A model generated the notes under the pieces. It ran no database searches. It worked only from the letters and a program-made list of their open reading frames with translations, and was not told where the DNA came from. Positions 1,833-58,284 of a stretch of 64,000 nucleotides of DNA are shown piece after piece. Position numbers and translations under genes: made by a program. The stretch is from an uncultured Candidatus Saccharibacteria bacterium (GTDB lineage Bacteria; Patescibacteriota; Minisyncoccia; Phycocordibacterales; SBAW01), in NCBI GenBank assembly GCA_964566795.1, contig CAZMIU010000001.1, forward strand, positions 479,090 through 543,089, in the 5' to 3' direction. Numbering within the stretch: the stretch's first letter is position 1; every line of letters starts with the position of its first letter.

Positions 1833-3362
1833 ATGTCATTAAAACTACTGTTTACCCTCCTGGCTCTCGCGGCCTTAGGGGGAGCCGTGCTGGGCTTTGT
1901 CCTGCGCTGGCTCTTGGTGCTCGCTCGTAAAGGCTCAATAGAAATAGAGGTAAAGCAAATTCTCCTAGACGCAAACGTACAGGCCCAAAAGATAACCGAA
2001 GAGGCCGACACCAAAGCCAAGGAGGTGGTAGCCGCTGCCGAGGCAACCCTAGCCGAGAAGGAGGAGAAGGTAACCCGCGCGGAGGAGCGTGTCTTTAAAC
2101 GTGAAGAGGCTCTGGACAAAAGCCGAGCCGAGCTCGAGGCAGAGGTTGCCGCTGTTAAGGCAAAGATAGAGGACGTACGCGCCATTAAGGAGCGCGCCGA
2201 AGCTCTTTTGGCCGAGCGCCAGGGCGAGCTGTCTAAGGTTGCCGGGCTTACCGCCGAGGAGGCCAGACAGCAGCTTATGGCCGAGGTAGAGCGCGCATCT
2301 GCAGAGGACCTTATGATGCGTGCAGCCAAGCTAGACCGCGACGGCCACGAGAGGCTCGAGCGCAAAGCGCGCGACATTTTGACCACCGCCATACACCGCC
2401 TGGGCAACTCTGTGGCCTCCGACACGATGGCCACTGCCATCACGATCCCCAACGACGAGCTCAAGGGCAAAATTATCGGCAAAGAGGGCCGCAACATTAA
2501 GGCGTTCGAGCGCGCCACTGGGGTTGAGGTAATCATCGACGACACACCGGGTTCTATCGTGCTCTCAAGCTACGACCCGCTGCGCCGCGCTATTGCGCGC
2601 ATGGCGCTGGAGAACCTTATTGTCGATGGTCGCATCCAGCCTGCCAAGATTGAGGAGACCGTGGAGAAGGCGCGCAACGACGTTAACAAAATTATTAAGG
2701 AGAAGGCCGACGCAGCCGCATTTGAGGCCGGCGTACTTAATCTCGACCCTAAGCTCCTCATGATATTGGGCCGCCTCCACTTCCGCACCAGCTACGGGCA
2801 GTCCGTGCTGCAGCACTCGGTTGAGATGGCGCATATTGCCGGCATGCTCGCAGAGGAGCTTGGGGCGAATCCTCAGGTGGCGCGCGCGGGTGCGCTTTTG
2901 CACGACATTGGCAAGGCCCTAGACCACGAGGTGCAGGGCACACATGTAGAAATTGGCCGCAGGGTACTGCAGAAGTTTGGCGTGCACGAGGATGTTATTA
3001 AGGCCATGCAGGCCCACCACGAGGAGTACCCGTACGAGACGCTTGAGAGCTACATCGTGCAGGTGGCCGACGCCATATCGGGTGGCCGCCCCGGTGCGCG
3101 CCGCGACTCTGTGGAGCAGTACATCAAGCGCCTCCAGGACATCGAGGGCATTGCCAACTCCTTCCCCGGTGTCGAGAAGTCGTTTGCTATATCGGCCGGC
3201 CGCGAGGTGCGGGTGTTTGTAAAGCCCGATGAGATGAGCGACTTCCAGGCGCGCGAGCTTGCCCGCAACGTGGCACTGCGTATTGAGAACGAGCTTAAGT
3301 ACCCGGGCGAGATAAAAGTAAACGTCATCCGCGAAACCCGCGCAATCGAGTTTGCCCGGTAA
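1833..3362 (+). CDS. rny: ribonuclease Y (N-terminal TM, KH and HD domains)
   Basis: N-terminal TM helix, coiled-coil, KH and HD domain motifs (LHDIGKA). Confidence 0.92.
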   Translation: MSLKLLFTLLALAALGGAVLGFVLRWLLVLARKGSIEIEVKQILLDANVQAQKITEEADTKAKEVVAAAEATLAEKEEKVTRAEERVFKREEALDKSRAELEAEVAAVKAKIEDVRAIKERAEALLAERQGELSKVAGLTAEEARQQLMAEVERASAEDLMMRAAKLDRDGHERLERKARDILTTAIHRLGNSVASDTMATAITIPNDELKGKIIGKEGRNIKAFERATGVEVIIDDTPGSIVLSSYDPLRRAIARMALENLIVDGRIQPAKIEETVEKARNDVNKIIKEKADAAAFEAGVLNLDPKLLMILGRLHFRTSYGQSVLQHSVEMAHIAGMLAEELGANPQVARAGALLHDIGKALDHEVQGTHVEIGRRVLQKFGVHEDVIKAMQAHHEEYPYETLESYIVQVADAISGGRPGARRDSVEQYIKRLQDIEGIANSFPGVEKSFAISAGREVRVFVKPDEMSDFQARELARNVALRIENELKYPGEIKVNVIRETRAIEFAR

Positions 3363-3380
3363 AATTGTGAAAAGAAAAAA

Positions 3381-3408
3381 CCGCCGCGAAACCTCGCGGC
3401 GGTTTTGT
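3381..3408 (+). terminator. rho-independent terminator after rny
   Basis: GC hairpin ccgccgcgaaacctcgcggcgg followed by TTTT. Confidence 0.7.
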
Positions 3409-3574
3409 TATGCGAGTATCATGTAAACACCCTACCCAGCAATCTGACGTACCCCCTCCCCCATCGCGTATACCGAAAGAACAGAAACGCTGCAGCAAAA
3501 CCATAAGCGATTGCAAAATATTCCATCTGTCACTCCCACTGTTGATGTACGTCTCGATGAGAATTCGATTTGAA

Positions 3575-3610
3575 TCAAATTCTCAATAGAGGGGAGGAAT
3601 TGCTTCCTCC
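3575..3610. repeat. Cassette-boundary repeat copy A: conserved motif tcaaattctcaatagaggggag plus hairpin ggaggaa-ttgc-ttcctcc, just 3' of the - strand gene 3618..4037
   Basis: 21/23 nt identical to the copy at 4090..4111. Both are followed by a different but compensatory hairpin. Flanking similarity extends about 60 nt. Confidence 0.6.
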
Positions 3611-3617
3611 CGAGTTT

Positions 3618-4037
3618 TTACTCCCCCTCCTTTACTGCAATCAGAGTAAGGTTTGGATTGTCGCGCTGAAACTCTGCAGCTTCTTGCAGAGAGTTAAACG
3701 GGCCGAATCTCGCCGCGTAGAGGCGCACGCTAGAGAAATCCCCTTTGTCATGCACCCAGCCAAGCCAGTATTTAGAGAAGTGCTTAGCTTCATACTCCCT
3801 GCCCGCTTGGAATGCCTTGCCCATCATCCTCTCCAACAACGGAGACCTGGAGTCTGGCCCCGTGTAGACATCCATACTGAGCGCAGCAAAGAGTAGATTT
3901 GTTATATCTTCGTCCCACTGGTCAAGATACGGGCCGAAATCCTCCGACGCCAGGATTAGATTGACGTCATTCTCCTCCACCTCCTCGTCCCGTTCTGGTA
4001 GCACGCAACAGTGATCGAAGTAATAGTAGAACCACAT
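3618..4037 (-). CDS. hypothetical acidic protein (139 aa)
   Basis: Strong SD AGGAGGGGG 5 nt before ATG. Low-GC region. No recognisable domain. Confidence 0.6.
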   Translation of the reverse strand: MWFYYYFDHCCVLPERDEEVEENDVNLILASEDFGPYLDQWDEDITNLLFAALSMDVYTGPDSRSPLLERMMGKAFQAGREYEAKHFSKYWLGWVHDKGDFSSVRLYAARFGPFNSLQEAAEFQRDNPNLTLIAVKEGE

Positions 4038-4089
4038 AGCCCCCTCCTATTTGTGTGAATGTACTTCTAAATGAAAATCCGAAAGCGTT

Positions 4090-4129
4090 TCAGATTCTCA
4101 ATAGAGAGGAGAAGCGCGTGCGCTTCTCC
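4090..4129. repeat. Cassette-boundary repeat copy B: motif tcagattctcaatagagaggag plus hairpin ggagaagcg-cgtg-cgcttctcc, just 3' of the - strand gene 4136..4477
   Basis: See copy A. The hairpin starts 6 nt after the stop codon, the same layout as copy A. Confidence 0.6.
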
Positions 4130-4135
4130 AAAGTT

Positions 4136-4477
4136 TTAGTCGTCCCTACAGTCATCCCTCCAGTCGTCCTCGAAGAGCTCATCGAGCTCGCCAGGATCGG
4201 GATTGGGGTCGTGGTCGTCGGGGTCGTCTTCCACGAAAGGCCAATCAGGATGTGCGTAGCGCAGTTTCTCTCCGTTTGGAAAGAATTCGCGCTGCGCCTC
4301 TCCGAGCTGGCGGTTCAGTTCCCTGACCAGGGGGTTGGACGGTACCTCATGGTCATAGAATTTGGACTCTATGTCATCCATAAGGAATACGACACTCGTA
4401 ATGAAGTCGTCCTCGGTTGTGCTAGCAATCGCCACCCATTTAAGGATGAGATAGGCGTAGCGGTCGTAGTCAATCAT
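4136..4477 (-). CDS. hypothetical highly acidic protein (113 aa, D/E/P-rich C-terminal tail)
   Basis: Strong SD AGGAGGGGACC before ATG. Start context nearly identical to that of 3618..4037. Confidence 0.6.
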   Translation of the reverse strand: MIDYDRYAYLILKWVAIASTTEDDFITSVVFLMDDIESKFYDHEVPSNPLVRELNRQLGEAQREFFPNGEKLRYAHPDWPFVEDDPDDHDPNPDPGELDELFEDDWRDDCRDD

Positions 4478-4661
4478 GGTCCCCTCCTAGGGTTGGCCTG
4501 TGGGCCTTGTGGATGATCGTAACTGACAACATTATGCCTTGTTTGGCAAGTCTAGTCAAAAACTAGGGTTACAAAAGACCAAAATACCCTTGTTTTACAA
4601 GCGTATTCTAAAGGTAGTCAAAATACTTGACCAAAAGGGGCGTTTGGCATATCCTGTAGCT

Positions 4662-5420
4662 ATGGAGCAACCCAACGCCGACCTGGCCAAAAACCTAGAG
4701 CAAATAGGCCTCTCCCCCAAGGAGGCCCAGGTCTACCTGGCTCTTTTGGGCCTTGAGAGCTCTACCGCCTACGAGATAGCCCAGCACTGTGAGGTTAAAA
4801 AGCCCACCGTATACGTAATTTTGGAGGATTTGCGCCAAAAAGGGCTTGTTTTAAAGGTCCCCCACCCCCGCAAGGCCATATTTGCCGCCCGGGACTTGGG
4901 CGAGTACCTGCTAGAGCAAAGAGGCAAGCTCAACGCCGTGCAGTCTATGATGCCGCGCCTTATGAGCTTGGGCGGCAAAAACAAGCCTAAAGTGTACTTT
5001 TACAGCGGGATGAGGGGCTTTACCGAGGCGATGAACTATAAGTTTGACTCTATGCGCGGCAAAACCTACTACTCGTTTTATGGCAACTCTAAGGACGCAG
5101 ACCGCCGGGTGGTAGAGCTTTTTAACCGCTGGACCCCAGAGGCGGTAGCCTCGGACATCTCCTTTAGGATAATTATGCCTAAGACGCAGGTTTTGACAGA
5201 CGACTACCCCGAGCTCCAGAGCTTAAACGAGACAAAAGACCATGTAGAGATAAAATACATGTCCGAGTACGAGCAGGAGAGCAATCTCTCTATAGAGATA
5301 GCCGAGACGTTTGTGCGTATAGACGACTCCAAGCATGTAACAGCGACAATAATAGACGACCTGGCCACGGCGCAGGCCATGCGGCATATCTTTGACATTG
5401 TCTGGCACAAGGGCGTATAG
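4662..5420 (+). CDS. TrmB-family HTH transcriptional regulator
   Basis: N-terminal winged HTH (LSPKEAQVYLALL...STAYEIAQ...KPTVYVILEDLRQKGLV) typical of the TrmB family. The ATG at 4662 is chosen over the upstream extension of the ORF. Confidence 0.7.
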   Translation: MEQPNADLAKNLEQIGLSPKEAQVYLALLGLESSTAYEIAQHCEVKKPTVYVILEDLRQKGLVLKVPHPRKAIFAARDLGEYLLEQRGKLNAVQSMMPRLMSLGGKNKPKVYFYSGMRGFTEAMNYKFDSMRGKTYYSFYGNSKDADRRVVELFNRWTPEAVASDISFRIIMPKTQVLTDDYPELQSLNETKDHVEIKYMSEYEQESNLSIEIAETFVRIDDSKHVTATIIDDLATAQAMRHIFDIVWHKGV

Positions 5421-5455
5421 TGCCCGGCGAAGAGTTCTAGCTATAGGAGGGCCGC

Positions 5456-5839
5456 ATGGCCATATCTAAAGTCTTTGCCGTTTGCCTTGGCGATGCAGCT
5501 TCAATTAGCAAAGGGCAATTGCTCGAGGAGTATTTGAAGTACCACCCCCACTTCAGGTTGTGGTTTTTCAAGCCCGAGCCGGGCAAGCAGAATCTCGAGA
5601 ATATGGCTCTGCGCTTGGCCCGCATAGCCAAGGACGCCGACATACTTATCGCTGTGCAGGGATCGACGCACCCAATAGAAGGAGTGCCGGCCGACGAGGT
5701 GCATATGTACATCAAGGGCTATGAAAGGAGTCACTTTGTCGAGTTTTATCCGACGGAAGGGAGCAATCCTCCCCACAAGGAACTCGCAAAGGACCTCGCC
5801 TTGCTGTCGTTTGCACGGTTGCATATGCGCATGCAGTGA
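5456..5839 (+). CDS. hypothetical protein (127 aa)
   Basis: Perfect SD AGGAGG 5 nt upstream of ATG. Followed by a strong terminator. Confidence 0.6.
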   Translation: MAISKVFAVCLGDAASISKGQLLEEYLKYHPHFRLWFFKPEPGKQNLENMALRLARIAKDADILIAVQGSTHPIEGVPADEVHMYIKGYERSHFVEFYPTEGSNPPHKELAKDLALLSFARLHMRMQ

Positions 5840-10611: not shown

Positions 10612-11071
10612 ACGTTGTCCTTTACATTGTCTTTTATAACCGTAGTATTCATATCAGACATAACGTACTTACTGCTTAACAAAAACTCTCCCAGTTTTTA
10701 AAGCCCTAAGAACGAGTTCTTTATACATCGTTGAAACAAGGTCTCTTGCCCTGTAGACCGCTATTCAACAACAGGAATCTGCAGGTTCCTGGAGCCATTT
10801 CACGACACCTCTTTGAGGCGAGGATGCAAATCCTTCAACCTTCTAAAAGTGGATTCAAACATCCGTTTGGTCTCACTTAATCGACCGAGGAAAAACGGTT
10901 AAGAACAAGAGATGCCATGAGATACCGGCTCAAAAACAAGCCACCGCGACGGGATAAATAACAACTCCACCCCAGACCGGTGGCTTTTGTATTTCTAAAA
11001 TAGATCTTATTTAAGCTCTATAGTGACGGGGCCGGGATCGGAGCGCCGCCACTCTAGACGCATAATAATGG

Positions 11072-11875
11072 TTAGTCTCTGATTTCTATCGTCACCGGGC
11101 AATGATCGCTTCCCATGACGTCGGCCAAAATTTTGGCGGATTTTATCTTTTTGGCGAGTGCTTTGGAGACAAACCAGTAGTCTATGCGCCAGCCCACGTT
11201 CCTCTCACGGGATAGGGCGAAGTGGCTCCACCACGTGTAGTGGCCATTGCCTTTGGTAAACAATCTAAACGTGTCCACAAACCCGGCTGCAATCATATTG
11301 TCGATGCCGGAGCGCTCCTCCTTAGTAAAGCCCTTCTTGCCCTCGTTTGGCTTGGGGTTGGCGAGATCGTCCGCGGTATGCGCCACGTTTAAGTCGCCGC
11401 AAAACACCACGGGCTTCTCCACATCTAACCGTTTCATATACTCCAAAAAGGCCGGGTCCCACTGCTTATGCCGCAAGGGGATGCGCGAGAGGTCGTCCTT
11501 GCTGTTGGGGGTGTAGACCGTTACAACCCAAAAATCCTCCAACTCAAGCGCAATAACGCGGCCCTCGCGGTTAGGGTCACCATAAGAGTCGTTATGGAGC
11601 TTGTACTTTTTACATAGGTCCTCGGGCAAGCCGTGCACCTCGTCTAATACCTCTATGTCTTTTTTTACAAAAATGGCGGTGCCGGAATAGCCCTTCTTTT
11701 CCGCGCTGTTCCAAAACTCCTCGTACTGTGGCAGATCAATCTGTGCCTGGCCGCGCTCGGCCTTGGTCTCTTGCAGACACAAGACATCGGGCTTTTCTTT
11801 TTTAACAAACTCCCCAAACGTGCCCTTTTTTACCACGGCGCGTATTCCGTTTACATTCCAACTAATCAGCTTCAT
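11072..11875 (-). CDS. xth: exodeoxyribonuclease III
   Basis: EEP nuclease family: MKLISWNVNGIRA...LCLQETK...GDLNVAH...SDHCPV. Internal Met used as start. Confidence 0.92.
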   Translation of the reverse strand: MKLISWNVNGIRAVVKKGTFGEFVKKEKPDVLCLQETKAERGQAQIDLPQYEEFWNSAEKKGYSGTAIFVKKDIEVLDEVHGLPEDLCKKYKLHNDSYGDPNREGRVIALELEDFWVVTVYTPNSKDDLSRIPLRHKQWDPAFLEYMKRLDVEKPVVFCGDLNVAHTADDLANPKPNEGKKGFTKEERSGIDNMIAAGFVDTFRLFTKGNGHYTWWSHFALSRERNVGWRIDYWFVSKALAKKIKSAKILADVMGSDHCPVTIEIRD

Positions 11876-11975
11876 GGGGCAATGATACCAAATAGCGCCT
11901 AAGGGTTTACAGAGCACAAAGGCATGGTAGAGTCGGGGCGGGAAACCTCCCAAGCTCCAAAAAGGGACACATACG

Positions 11976-12218
11976 ATGAGGAAAGCTCTTTTGTTTGCTG
12001 CGGCGGTGGCTATAGCCACCGTGAGCATCCCGAGCGATGCCGATGCACAGTATCGCCGACACGGGGTCCACCGCGGACACGGGCATCACTACCACGCGCC
12101 GCCCCGCACGACACACCGCCACTACCACTATGGTCGCCGGTACAGCCCGCCGCCGCGCTACTATTACTACTCGCCGCCGTGTAGGCTTGTTGTCAACGGC
12201 GTCTGCGTCCGCAGATAG
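11976..12218 (+). CDS. small secreted His/Tyr/Arg/Pro-rich peptide (80 aa)
   Basis: Signal peptide MRKALLFAAAVAIATVSIPSDADA. Mature part HRGHGHHYHAPPRTTHRHYHYGRRYSPPPRYYYYSPP. Followed by hairpin 12237..12264. Confidence 0.5.
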   Translation: MRKALLFAAAVAIATVSIPSDADAQYRRHGVHRGHGHHYHAPPRTTHRHYHYGRRYSPPPRYYYYSPPCRLVVNGVCVRR

Positions 12219-12236
12219 CCGCCACAACTTGCCCGA

Positions 12237-12264
12237 GCCGCCCCTATAATCTGGGGCGGCTTCT
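12237..12264 (+). terminator. hairpin terminator-like element after the small peptide gene
   Basis: gccgcccc-tataatc-ggggcggc followed by ttct (weak T-run). Confidence 0.4.
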
Positions 12265-12397
12265 ACGTTGTGCCCCACCAGATAAGCAAGGCGGGGACCA
12301 CAAGCCACAGGAGACCCTTGATAGTAAAAAATAAAAACGCCCCCACGCCCGCATACTTAAGCCACTTCTTCTTGTTTTTACTATCGTCGCTGTCCAT
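12263..12397 (-). CDS. small membrane protein (44 aa)
   Basis: Hand translation MDSDDSKNKKKWLKYAGVGAFLFFTIKGLLWLVVPALLIWWGTT. Start overlaps the last codons of xerC. No clear SD. Confidence 0.3.
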   Translation of the reverse strand: MDSDDSKNKKKWLKYAGVGAFLFFTIKGLLWLVVPALLIWWGTT

Positions 12398-13310
12398 GGA
12401 ATTTTTTGTGGACCTCTCTTAAATGCTTGTCTGTCACATGGGTGTACACCTGGGTTGTGGCAATGTTTTGGTGGCCTAAGAGTGCCTGCACGCTGCGCAG
12501 GTCTGCGCCACTCTCAAGCAGGTCGGTGGCAAAGGAGTGGCGAATGACGTGCGGGGTTACCTTGCGCGTTATGCCTGCCTTGGTGGCATAGTGCTTAATC
12601 ATGCGCTCTACCGAGCGCGGCGTGAGCCGCAGGTCTTTGGCGTTTTTACTATTTTTGCCCATCTGCACAAACAGTGCGTCGTCTACATCGCCGCGCTTGT
12701 CCAAGTATTTCTTAATAGCGTCCTTGGCGGCAGGGGAGAGGAACACCACCCGCACCTTCTCGCCTTTGCCGCGCACGCTAAACTCGTCGCGGCTTAAGTC
12801 GAGGTCGCGGCTAAGGGAGCACAGCTCGGAGACACGCAAGCCCGTACTAAACAGGAGCTCCATAATAGCTTTGTCACGCAGCGCCGTGAGCAGGGCAGCG
12901 GGGGATTTACTCTGTGTGGGCTGGCTGGGGCCTGCCATAAGCCTCTCGAGCTCGCTACTAGAGATTAGGTCTAAGTCGCGCTGACCCACCTTGGCGAGCT
13001 CTATTCTCTCCGGGTTAAGGCTCTCAATATCGCGCTTACGCAGGAATTTGAGGAACGCGCGCAGGCTAATCATGTAGTAGTTAATGGTCTTGAGCTTCAT
13101 AGTCCCGCTTATACCCGGTTGGCGGTTAAGGTGGATACGAAACTCTCTAATAGCCTGCTCGGTCACTTTGGCAGGGGAGGAGATACCCGTGTGGGCTAAA
13201 AAACGGCTCAAATAGCGGTCATAGTTCTCGACCGTCTTTATTGAGCGCCCCTTCTCAATCTCCAGATACTCCAAAAACTGGGATTTGAGGTCCTTTAGAT
13301 CGGTTGCCAT
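12381..13310 (-). CDS. xerC: tyrosine recombinase XerC/XerD family
   Basis: N-terminal SAM-like domain plus catalytic R...HxxR...Y (VIRHSFATDLLESGADLRSVQALLGHQNIATTQVYTHV). Confidence 0.9.
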   Translation of the reverse strand: MATDLKDLKSQFLEYLEIEKGRSIKTVENYDRYLSRFLAHTGISSPAKVTEQAIREFRIHLNRQPGISGTMKLKTINYYMISLRAFLKFLRKRDIESLNPERIELAKVGQRDLDLISSSELERLMAGPSQPTQSKSPAALLTALRDKAIMELLFSTGLRVSELCSLSRDLDLSRDEFSVRGKGEKVRVVFLSPAAKDAIKKYLDKRGDVDDALFVQMGKNSKNAKDLRLTPRSVERMIKHYATKAGITRKVTPHVIRHSFATDLLESGADLRSVQALLGHQNIATTQVYTHVTDKHLREVHKKFHGQRR

Positions 13311-57159: not shown

Positions 57160-57789
57160 ATGAGCAATGTTCTTGAGTATTCAGACGAGCAGGTAATGAA
57201 GGTTGTGCGCCAACTGCGCCTCGCCTACAAGCTCAAGCGTACGCCCCGCTATGGCGGCATCCGCGACCCAAAGGTGCATAGTGAGTCGGTGGCAGAGCAC
57301 AAGTTCGCGCTCCTCTTTCTCTCGCGCTACTTTGTGCGCACAGAAGTGTTGCCCCGCGGGCTCGACATGGAGAAGGTGGATAATCTTATCCTCTTCCATG
57401 ACTTTGGCGAGATACCGCGCGGCGACAAGCCCTATATAAGCAAGACCAGGGCAGACGAGGAGCGTGAGCGCTACGACGCTGAGCGCGTGTTCAAATCACT
57501 GCCGGAAGAGCTCCAAGAGCTTGGATTTATCAGCTGGCAGGCGTTTGAGACGCGCGATGGCCTTGAGGCGCTGTTTGTTAATGCGCTCGACAAGGTTGAG
57601 CCCTGCTTTGAACTGCAGGGCAGGACCAATGAGCAGACACTCATGCGCCTTGGCTACACGTACGAGAAACATATCGGTAAAAAGCTGGCGGCCACAGAGA
57701 GATTTCCTGTCATGAGGAAGTTTGTCGAGGTCACCGCCCGCAAAAAACTTGGCCGCGGCGTCTTTGTTGATGCCATGGCTGCAGAGTGA
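57160..57789 (+). CDS. HD-domain phosphohydrolase (YfbR-like 5'-nucleotidase family)
   Basis: ESVAEHKF...LFHDFGEIPRGD HD motif. Internal Met used as start. Confidence 0.75.
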   Translation: MSNVLEYSDEQVMKVVRQLRLAYKLKRTPRYGGIRDPKVHSESVAEHKFALLFLSRYFVRTEVLPRGLDMEKVDNLILFHDFGEIPRGDKPYISKTRADEERERYDAERVFKSLPEELQELGFISWQAFETRDGLEALFVNALDKVEPCFELQGRTNEQTLMRLGYTYEKHIGKKLAATERFPVMRKFVEVTARKKLGRGVFVDAMAAE

Positions 57790-57794
57790 TACTG

Positions 57795-57826
57795 GCCCAA
57801 CCGAAAGGTTGGGCTACTCTTTTTGT
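57795..57826. terminator. bidirectional intrinsic terminator
   Basis: gcccaaccgaaaggttgggc followed by ctttttg. Confidence 0.7.
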
Positions 57827-58284
57827 AAAAGAAAGAGTGCGACGCCGCAGGCTACGGAGACATTGAGGGAGTACTTTTGGCCGCGCATGGGGATTTGTAT
57901 GATCTCGTCGCAGAGTTTTAAATCTTCGGGAGCTATGCCGTCCACTTCGTTGCCCAGCACAATAGCTATCTTCTCGCCCTCTTGGCGTTTGTAGTCGTAG
58001 ATATTGGTGGCGTTGTCTGCGAGCTCTATGGCGAGCACCCTGTAGCCTTCGGCTTTTAGTTTGGCTATCGCGTCCTTAAGGTCTGCCTCGCGGGAGTAGG
58101 GGACAAAGTTTTGCGCACCTAAAGAGACCTTGGCAAAGTCGGGGCGCTCGCGGCCCTTTGGGTCTAGTGGCCCTGGGGTGTAGCCGCACAGAACAATGCG
58201 GCCAACACCCGCGCCATCCGCGGTGCGGAACATGCTCCCCACGTTGTGGGCCGAGCGTATGTTATGCAGCACTAAAACAGGCAT
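57814..58284 (-). CDS. SpoU/TrmH-family RNA 2'-O-methyltransferase (TrmL-sized, 156 aa)
   Basis: SPOUT motifs NIRSAHNVGSMFRTADGAG, VLGNEVDGI, NVSVACGVALF. Confidence 0.8.
   Translation of the reverse strand: MPVLVLHNIRSAHNVGSMFRTADGAGVGRIVLCGYTPGPLDPKGRERPDFAKVSLGAQNFVPYSREADLKDAIAKLKAEGYRVLAIELADNATNIYDYKRQEGEKIAIVLGNEVDGIAPEDLKLCDEIIQIPMRGQKYSLNVSVACGVALFLLQKE

Follow-up and report, generated by a model that had tools for sequence, protein, structure and literature searches.

In phage T7, RNase III processing signals (R0.3, R0.5, R1, R1.1 and R1.3) are located between the early genes, and signals of the same kind separate genes of the Bacillus phage SP82. The repetitive extragenic palindromic (REP) hairpins of malE-malF in Escherichia coli are a further example of intercistronic stem-loops, of the type known as selective RNA processing and stabilisation (SRPS). 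At the DNA level, integron cassettes carry attC sites, including those of chromosomal arrays with uniform repeats (the Vibrio cholerae repeats, VCRs), and in the pdif modules of Acinetobacter plasmids, as at lox and dif sites, genes are bounded by short inverted sites with two arms of ~11 bp. In Clostridium cellulolyticum, intergenic stem-loops that lack U-runs mark processing sites at gene 3′-ends, and their stability sets the transcript ratios (PMC4423207). Here we describe a ~90-nt intergenic element (IGE) that lies twice within a 64,000-nt stretch of DNA (hereafter the window; contig CAZMIU010000001.1, positions 479,090 to 543,089) from an uncultured Candidatus Saccharibacteria bacterium. 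Both copies belong to a three-cistron operon, A-IGE-B-IGE-M, on the minus strand of this Paceibacteria-type (candidate phyla radiation) genome, with a single promoter and one canonical terminator at its end. The IGE is a structured and selected element of the sense strand, placed between cistrons, and of this we are much more confident than of its proposed role: we estimate at about 0.5 the probability that it works as an SRPS-type punctuation signal for RNA processing and stabilisation.

Each IGE comprises, in order, an A-rich tract, a GC-rich tetraloop hairpin (hairpin 1), an AU-rich irregular stem (hairpin 2) and a leader with a GTWCWT...ACA stretch (the box reads GTACAT in copy 1), which runs into the Shine-Dalgarno (SD) sequence and start codon of the next open reading frame (ORF). 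Hairpin 1 starts 6-7 nt past the TAA in the two window copies. The inner helix of hairpin 2 has 12-13 bp and extends to 15-17 bp with an outer helix of 3-4 bp (4 + 13 bp in copy 1 and 3 + 12 bp in copy 2, with internal loops of 1x2 and 3x2, respectively). The folding energies were -32.4 kcal/mol for copy 1 (z = -4.5) and -32.9 kcal/mol for copy 2 (z = -4.6). The two spacers align at a mean column identity of 75%, and the 17-mer CTCTATTGAGAATYTGA occurs exactly twice in the 64 kb (4106..4090 and 3591..3575, minus strand), compared with 0.13 occurrences expected with up to 3 mismatches. The context TAGGAGGGG-N3-ATG is also repeated, at 4489..4475 and 4049..4035 and, with one mismatch, at 5444-5458 on the plus strand, that is, 3 matches in 64 kb versus 0.19 expected with one mismatch allowed. 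Alignment showed a similarity between this leader part and the predicted 5′-end of the primary transcript (GTWCWT box, optional CCGGCC hairpin, SD). Since this leader is common to both, hairpins 1 and 2 are the parts specific to internal positions.

The original prediction, made from the letters of the window, had pointed to two genes with alike SD contexts, each followed 6-7 nt after its stop by a hairpin whose stem differed in sequence yet remained complementary, and then by a conserved motif. Genes, contexts and 3′ elements were all found where it had placed them, and both copies fold in that manner. Several of its details had to be redrawn. The quoted motifs are 22-mers identical at 20 of 22 positions, instead of 21 of 23. 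The repeat itself is genuine, as the exact 17-mer indicates, but it does not stand free: it is the 5′ arm of hairpin 2, which had gone unseen. Nor is the element the 3′ part of each cassette, because conservation extends as far as the SD of the following ORF, which makes the unit intercistronic. The idea of a duplicated cassette made of an ORF plus its boundary had to be dropped, given that A shows no homology to B (BLASTP E = 0.27) and the spacer alone is repeated. Finally, the two-gene view had missed a third ORF, M, behind copy 2.

Copies of the IGE were also found in other organisms. A pattern scan of metagenomes from the Joint Genome Institute (JGI) yielded two related loci, L013, which has the same RNase Y synteny and three copies, and L016, which has a different context and two copies; a third locus, L001, carries the only homologue of B, with one IGE copy on each side of that gene. 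RNAalifold on eight copies gave a two-hairpin consensus with changes on both sides in 9 of 21 pairs, and a covariance model (CM) was built from those 8 copies. Outside the training set, the CM matched L019 (72 and 68 bits), L155 (74.6 bits), L018 (36.6 and 23.8 bits) and L028, a Candidatus Kaiserbacteria assembly (35.5 bits), the independent copies in other organisms reaching E = 1e-12 to 1e-14. The comparative set amounts to 15 copies in 8 loci from Paceibacteria/Kaiserbacteria-like metagenomes, several of these loci being close relatives. A second-round model (R2) added only two weak candidates, L016 1536-1598 (25 bits) and L027 105-181 (22 bits).

Across 14 copies, 96.1% of the paired cells form pairs and compensatory changes are present in 14 of the 21 pairs, a level that none of 500 shuffles reached; slid controls paired at 33-54%, and the six copies that had not been used for training paired equally well. 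The structure of the hairpin 1 stem is kept more than its sequence, its loops include GNRA and UNCG tetraloops (GCAA, GUGA, UACG), and the loop of hairpin 2 ranges from about 3 to 7 nt. It is common for a stop codon to be followed by a short GC hairpin, and chance similarity or ordinary terminators might be invoked to explain the two elements; the excess of the exact 17-mer, the independent copies in other organisms and the covariation refute the chance reading, to which we give virtually no weight. Ordinary convergent terminators, an outcome that the original prediction had itself contemplated, do not fit either, since the elements are located between co-directional ORFs and lack a proper U-run.

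Several results assign the fold to one strand. On the sense strand of the IGE, G·U outnumbers A·C by 27 to 5, which indicates that the fold belongs to the mRNA strand; 11 of 14 copies share a U·G close to the hairpin 2 loop, and the reverse strand scores 17.6 bits or less with the CM. All 15 copies lie on the sense strand between co-directional ORFs. None stands upstream of a first ORF, and none follows the last ORF in the arrays that could be read to their 3′-end (the window, L001, the first array of L018, L016, L019, L155 and L028), where a canonical terminator comes directly after that ORF. Comparison of the window with L001 showed that the IGEs are 77-86% identical, whereas the third codon positions of B are 60% identical (dS = 1.35). 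The spacers are more conserved than the synonymous sites of the adjacent gene, from which we conclude that they are under purifying selection. Overall, one of the options left by the original prediction, a shared regulatory RNA element, is supported by this mRNA-specific fold with compensatory changes. Scanning the window against Rfam 15 at gathering thresholds returned tRNAs only and no family for the IGE; a permissive scan of 3350-4650 gave, inside the IGE, only Ocean-V (25 bits, threshold 75) and a plastid UTR motif (16 bits).

The distribution of the IGE also bears on whether it might be a selfish dispersed repeat, of the REP or bacterial interspersed mosaic element (BIME) type or a miniature inverted-repeat transposable element (MITE), that landed twice in one operon by chance. 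It is indeed a short palindromic extragenic repeat at gene 3′-ends, and REPs are known to stabilise upstream mRNA. Against this, the CM with filters off found only the two copies in the 64-kb window, itself part of a genome of probably ~590 kb; all copies have the sense orientation and lie in TrmB-linked operons wherever the upstream side is on the contig, and there are no terminal inverted repeats or target duplications. BLAST searches of plasmid and phage collections gave no match. Among viral contigs, the strict pattern had 0 matches and the loose pattern at least 120 stretches, of which 80 were examined (674 kb) and all rejected by the CM. A selfish origin is, in our opinion, most improbable. 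A pattern scan applied to a collection of genomes from 185,579 species, in which the source genome is not included, gave two chance matches only, both inside coding regions. A weak CM match at 57788-57883 of the window was discarded as an ordinary bidirectional terminator.

Two minor observations were made while gathering copies. At L017:780-1020, an AT-rich metagenome contig, a ~147-bp tandem repeat with units of the form GAATCTGA...TCGAATTTT...GTACAT matched the pattern; it scored only 17-25 bits with the CM and is probably unrelated to the IGE. At L016:1340-1613 (plus strand), ~270 nt free of ORFs separate an IGE from the next ORF and end in the weak 1536-1598 match, a region that may be a decayed cassette.

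The anatomy of the IGE, that is, a 3′ capping hairpin without a proper U-run, an irregular helix and a leader of the primary type, together with its likeness to SRPS and T7 signals, leads us to favour a role in RNA processing. According to this reading, the polycistronic transcript would be cut, or partly terminated, within the IGE. Hairpin 1 would form a cap that protects the upstream message at its 3′-end, the 5′-end of the downstream one would be set by hairpin 2 together with the leader, and any ORF in the slot would receive the same 3′ and 5′ untranslated modules, independently of its neighbours. RNase Y, RNase III and RNase J are candidates for the nuclease. Cleavage, stabilisation, the nuclease and, as discussed below, recombination at the connectors are all steps that we infer.

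The signals of T7 and SP82 are similar in that irregular hairpins with internal loops are repeated in each spacer of one transcript, and after cleavage there the upstream message ends in a 3′ hairpin and the downstream one begins with a defined leader, the same outcome that we propose for the IGE. The IGE differs in being part of a cellular operon, in having a helix of 15-17 bp compared with about 20 bp, and in the additional GC hairpin that comes first. With the SRPS stem-loops of the cip-cel operon of Clostridium cellulolyticum (PMC4423207) it shares the position of stem-loops lacking a proper U-run just after stop codons inside an operon, downstream genes that depend on a common promoter, and the expected role, namely protection of 3′-ends and setting of the ratio between cistrons. 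The differences are that two hairpins and a leader are repeated as a single ~90-nt unit, that this unit is tied to a slot of variable content, and that distant lineages have kept it in both sequence and structure; SRPS stem-loops, in contrast, are peculiar to the spacer in which they lie.

The same anatomy might instead correspond to an attenuator followed by a restart. In this case, hairpin 1 would be a leaky terminator, blocked by a ribosome stopping 6-8 nt upstream, and the region of hairpin 2 would hold a weak internal promoter, TTGAGA-N18-TCTCAT-N6-AGT, that recreates the primary leader. The terminator scan of the sense strand speaks in part for it, because hairpin 1 of copy 1 passes a lax rule (5 T in the 8 nt that follow), and an A-rich tract before and a U-rich tract after the stem are typical of bidirectional terminators. 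Moreover, the -10-like hexamer lies at the same distance from AGT as in the primary promoter, and the leader is common to both. However, copy 2 fails the scan, and the terminator that ends the operon has a long U-run, which the tails of hairpin 1 do not have. The -10-like hexamers never carry the essential A at position 2, and the promoter scan called one promoter-like site, upstream of A, and no sigma-70-like site in either IGE. In addition, some copies, such as copy 1 of L019 (TTCGGCGCTTGA...TCGAGCGCTCGA), lose all likeness to a promoter and keep the stem through compensatory changes, and across loci the distance from stop codon to hairpin 1 varies from about 5 to about 50 nt. Taking both sides together, we consider an attenuator with an internal promoter unlikely.

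Several points weigh against a processing signal. In copy 1, hairpin 1 might terminate transcription in a leaky manner, and hairpin 2, with an internal loop and 15-17 bp, is shorter than a classical RNase III substrate of ~20 bp. By sequence alone, folding of the same strand as single-stranded DNA is indistinguishable from folding as RNA. The comparative set is small and includes close relatives, and the alignment used for the pair counts was fitted to the CM, so that these figures lean towards structure. Finally, L024 and the first spacer of L028 have a stem like that of hairpin 1 and no detectable IGE, which means that the element is not obligatory in multi-gene arrays.

The features of the operon and of its surroundings are listed in Table 1. 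The terminator is common to the operon and to the convergent RNase Y gene (1833..3362, plus strand), and transcription of the array is predicted to start near 4524. The promoter and its spacer ACTTGCCAAAC are kept in L019, L018, L024 and L155. Other neighbours within ~5 kb encode trigger factor, ClpP, RNase Y, HU, a DUF3298 protein and a methyltransferase.

Table 1. Features of the operon that carries the two IGE copies and of its flanks (window positions; minus-strand features are given in the direction of transcription).
Feature	Position	Strand	Description
TrmBL2-like regulator gene	4644..5420	+	divergent from array promoter
Palindrome GGTCAAGTATTTTGACTAC	4614..4632		between regulator gene and array promoter
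Array promoter	4559..4531	-	sigma-70-like, TTGACT-17-CATAAT; 10/12 match
Primary 5′ leader of gene A	4524..4478 (47 nt)	-	AGTTACGATCAT box, GGCC-CACA-GGCC hairpin, SD TAGGAGGGG
Gene A	4477..4136	-	113 aa; ORFan; C-terminus very acidic
IGE copy 1	4135..4038	-	between A and B; CM 87.5 bits
IGE copy 1, A-rich tract	4135..4130	-	
IGE copy 1, hairpin 1	4129..4108	-	GGAGAAGCG-CACG-CGCTTCTCC
IGE copy 1, hairpin 2 and outer helix	4105..4066	-	
IGE copy 1, leader/SD	4065..4038	-	
Gene B	4037..3618	-	139 aa; ORFan; narrow lineage
IGE copy 2	3617..3527	-	between B and M; CM 79.1 bits
IGE copy 2, hairpin 1	3611..3592	-	GGGAGGAA-GCAA-TTCCTCCC; GNRA loop
IGE copy 2, hairpin 2 and outer helix	3591..3553	-	
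IGE copy 2, leader and SD	3552..3527	-	SD GGGAG
ORF M	3526..3419	-	35 aa; hydrophobic/membrane; SD and ATG directly after IGE copy 2
Intrinsic terminator	3406..3377	-	13-bp stem, long T-run; ends operon; kept in relatives together with RNase Y flank

Read from the opposite strand, the A-rich tract (AAAACT) before hairpin 1 places AGTTTT(T) behind the hairpin (4108-4135 and 3592-3617), and the terminator scan calls copy 2 a terminator on the plus strand. To judge from this arrangement, the hairpins may in addition block antisense transcription that reads into the operon from the convergent RNase Y gene.

The proteins of the operon resemble almost nothing. Protein A, searched among 5.8 billion proteins, matched only itself. 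B has a homologue on L001 (P0002, 75% identical) with a dN/dS of 0.12, and is thus a real coding gene; with B as query, a word-index search gave only a few relatives and an exhaustive HMMER search 3 proteins only, and its AlphaFold2 (AF2) model was unusable (predicted local distance difference test, pLDDT, 46). Neither A nor B matched Pfam, PADLOC, NCBIfam or PDB, and the PHROGs matches were non-significant (E 0.045 or worse). The suggestion that both belong to a family of acidic immunity or antitoxin proteins is not sustained by this lack of matches, nor by the lack of relationship between the two. M is a truncated homologue of Mx, a 91-aa membrane protein with two helices in L013 (7562..7287), to which it is 61% identical over 31 aa (E = 5.6e-12); its frame ends just before the terminator.

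The gene divergent from the operon encodes a protein with a winged helix-turn-helix (HTH), a coiled coil and a C-terminal domain like that of phospholipase D (PLD) without the HKD residues. It matches Pfam TrmB (PF01978) at 5.5e-16, above the cut-off, and its AF2 model (pLDDT 86) has the TrmBL2 structures 5bpd and 5bqt as top Foldseek matches, over the full length and with E of about 1e-14. Since it misses the NCBIfam equivalog cut-offs, we regard it as a distant member of the TrmB/TrmBL2 family. The PLD-like fold also matches NucT and Zucchini, which made a hidden nuclease or recombinase worth considering; this was rejected, as no invariant His, Lys or Asp was found in the alignment of the C-terminal domain. 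A match to the Pfam family DDE_Tnp_IS1595 (E = 0.011) was below threshold and treated as noise. The protein shares with TrmBL2 of Thermococcales the winged HTH, the long helix and the PLD-like C-terminal domain, in about 260 aa, and differs from it in sequence (15-17% identity), in its bacterial host, of the candidate phyla radiation, and in its setting: TrmBL2 of Thermococcales is a chromatin protein, and here we find a local regulator paired with a divergent variable operon.

For seven arrays the contig includes the upstream side (the window, L016, both arrays of L018, L019, L028 and L155), and each of them has a TrmB-family gene divergent from it. This pairing, and the fact that TrmBL2 is a repressor that coats DNA, raised the possibility that hairpin 2 is a palindromic site on duplex DNA, bound inside the operon by the TrmBL2-like protein or another dimeric protein; concerted change of two half-sites can mimic covariation. 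Nevertheless, the promoter region has a separate conserved palindrome, TAGTCAA-N5-TTGACTA (CTGACTA in L024), present at the same place in 6 related loci and unlike hairpin 2. This palindrome (4614-4632) is the obvious candidate, and likely the operator of the regulator, judging from its position and conservation. Furthermore, on a duplex the half-sites would be unequal, given the near-invariant U·G and a count of G·U well above that of A·C, the spacing between them varies by 4 nt, and hairpin 1 has no conserved sequence at all. An operator function of hairpin 2 is for these reasons very improbable.

A second clade of the regulator (L024, L027, L028 and L149) accompanies slots between an NYN-domain gene and the gene for polynucleotide phosphorylase. 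The first clade adjoins RNase Y, so that both slots neighbour genes of RNA decay, which may be a coincidence.

The gene content between promoter and terminator varies among relatives. In blastn comparisons with six syntenic relatives, two flanks of the window align at 73-87% identity: the left one, with ClpP, RNase Y and the terminator, up to 3407, and the right one, with the promoter, leader and regulator, from 4474/4475, the ATG of A. In the four relatives whose contigs include the regulator side and still align there (L018, L019 and L022, and further out L025/L026), no part of the interior aligns apart from the IGEs. Instead of A, B and M, the slot contains X0, X1, X2 and Mx in L013, ORFs of 118 and 103 aa in L155, of 224, 91 and 91 aa in L019, of 122 and 229 aa (the latter a methyltransferase) in L018, and a single ORF of 61, 364 or 182 aa in L022, L025 and L026, respectively. 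Even the closest relative, L155, whose regulator is 89% identical, has different ORFs. The same families recur in new contexts: X1 of L013 matches the last ORF of L019 (L019_91b, 49%), L019_224 matches L024_223 (61%), and L018_229 matches L024_408 (51%). IGE copy 1 is 86.7% identical to L013 7566-7655 despite the different ORFs that flank it, and copy 2 of L001 is a mosaic, with a hairpin 1 like that of window copy 2 and a hairpin 2 like that of L013 copy 1, which hints at recombination within the IGE. Gene content turns over completely between relatives and the non-coding scaffold remains fixed. The IGE looks like the standard connector of an exchangeable gene slot, and not like an integron site or an ordinary terminator.

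Integron cassette arrays resemble this locus in several respects. They too consist of co-oriented, promoterless and mostly ORFan genes behind one promoter beside a divergent conserved gene, with content that differs between relatives, and their attC sites are repeats of 60-140 nt at ORF boundaries, imperfect palindromes in which structure prevails over sequence. The proposal of an integron-like array was sound as far as the co-oriented promoterless ORFs and their variable content are concerned, that is, as an analogy, and failed on the points that follow. The neighbouring gene encodes a TrmB-family winged HTH protein, not IntI, and no recombinase is present at the locus. Neither a RYYYAAC/GTTRRRY pair nor a single GTTRRRY was found on either strand of the two window IGEs; the core pair was not found either in the arrays of L013, L019, L018 and L028, and the one pair in L016 (about 1360-1410) does not fall within an IGE copy. 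No repeat follows the last ORF, while every integron cassette would carry one, and in contrast to attC the repeat continues into the next SD and shows tetraloops and a G·U excess that point to RNA. A core site of the lox/dif type was likewise rejected, as the IGE has neither a spacer of fixed length nor conserved arms: its arms, which covary freely (GAGAAT to GGCGCT), are separated by about 3 nt in some copies and by up to about 7 nt in others. Also unlike pdif, lox and dif sites, all IGE copies have one orientation and no Xer-type gene is linked to them.

An analogue of attC outside integrons would be a recombination site folded in single-stranded DNA, at which a recombinase inserts and excises ORF cassettes of a gene-capture platform. 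The co-oriented promoterless ORFans behind one promoter, the recurrence of ORF families in new combinations and the different content even in L155 would suit such a site, and so would the conserved structure of hairpin 1, the mosaic copy of L001 and the presence of the 3′ part of the IGE upstream of the first ORF, as a hybrid junction would give. On the other hand, no recombinase accompanies the locus and the divergent TrmBL2-like protein has a PLD-like domain without conserved catalytic residues; attC cores are absent, and a last ORF without an IGE does not fit circles with one site per cassette. The tetraloops and the continuity of leader and SD point to RNA. In addition, contigs with A from 9 sequencing runs, collected in a search biased to exact A, show no rapid shuffling at the strain level: no other arrangement was seen, B being present on each of the 7 that are long enough on the downstream side, and the remaining two stop short of B or inside it. 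We therefore find a single-stranded DNA site distinctly unlikely.

Under the RNA processing signal that we favour, exchange of ORFs would be a by-product. Within the variable slot, conserved sequence is limited to the connectors, the leader and the terminator, which would thus provide the homology for ORF exchange; homologous recombination between relatives would swap ORFs at these places. A broader proposal is that the IGE is the boundary signal of an integrase-independent platform for gene exchange in bacteria of the candidate phyla radiation, a TrmBL2-regulated slot whose ORFs are swapped at structured connectors. Either an enzyme working on the folded single strand would carry out the swap, or DNA taken up by natural transformation would replace the resident ORFs, guided by homology, and the same ~90 nt would serve as RNA insulator and as recombination joint. 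We put this forward as a tentative idea and consider it unlikely.

Bacteria of the candidate phyla radiation, mostly uncultured, have very small genomes, and hardly any cis-regulatory RNAs have been described from them. In the literature on attC and integrons in Patescibacteria, on structured RNAs in this group and on TrmB in Parcubacteria, we found no relevant description. The novelty of the IGE lies in its composite nature, its conservation as an intercistronic RNA element and its link to a variable, TrmBL2-regulated slot in these bacteria; it is a compact motif supported by covariation, without a match in Rfam and seen only between cistrons of operons paired with a TrmBL2-like regulator. 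If it directs mRNA processing, it would be a natural insulator part, by virtue of which the expression of any inserted ORF would no longer depend on context. Should it guide ORF exchange as well, reduced genomes would keep a small regulated window for innovation in accessory genes without integrons. Either way, the CM provides a handle to search metagenomes for such slots and their ORFan cargo.

Some further observations concern the slots themselves. Just downstream of the regulator, a 127-aa ORF (5456-5839, plus strand) has a third TAGGAGGG-N-ATG context. Its position is a second variable slot, occupied by unrelated ORFs in L019, L018, L022, L025 and L026; only L155 has a homologue (31% identical). 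In L016, the last ORF (1902-2111, plus strand) has no ATG, GTG or TTG at a proper distance from AGGAGG and seems to start at an ATT located 5 nt after the SD. L018 contains a second TrmB-linked array (10900-13115, minus strand), with a radical-SAM gene, an IGE copy and, in tandem, three very short ORFs that each have a strong SD (MAAANTGSTGVSQPRPPKR, MGAANTGSAGITKPRPPRK and MAGANTGSAGVSKPRKPKKG). Another hairpin motif, distinct from the IGE and also repeated (GAGTAAGACTCGGAGCGGGCTGATATCYCGCTTGGCAACAGAA), lies around and between the first two of these ORFs and recurs after the third. The array appears to encode a group of ribosomal-peptide precursors and the maturase that goes with them.

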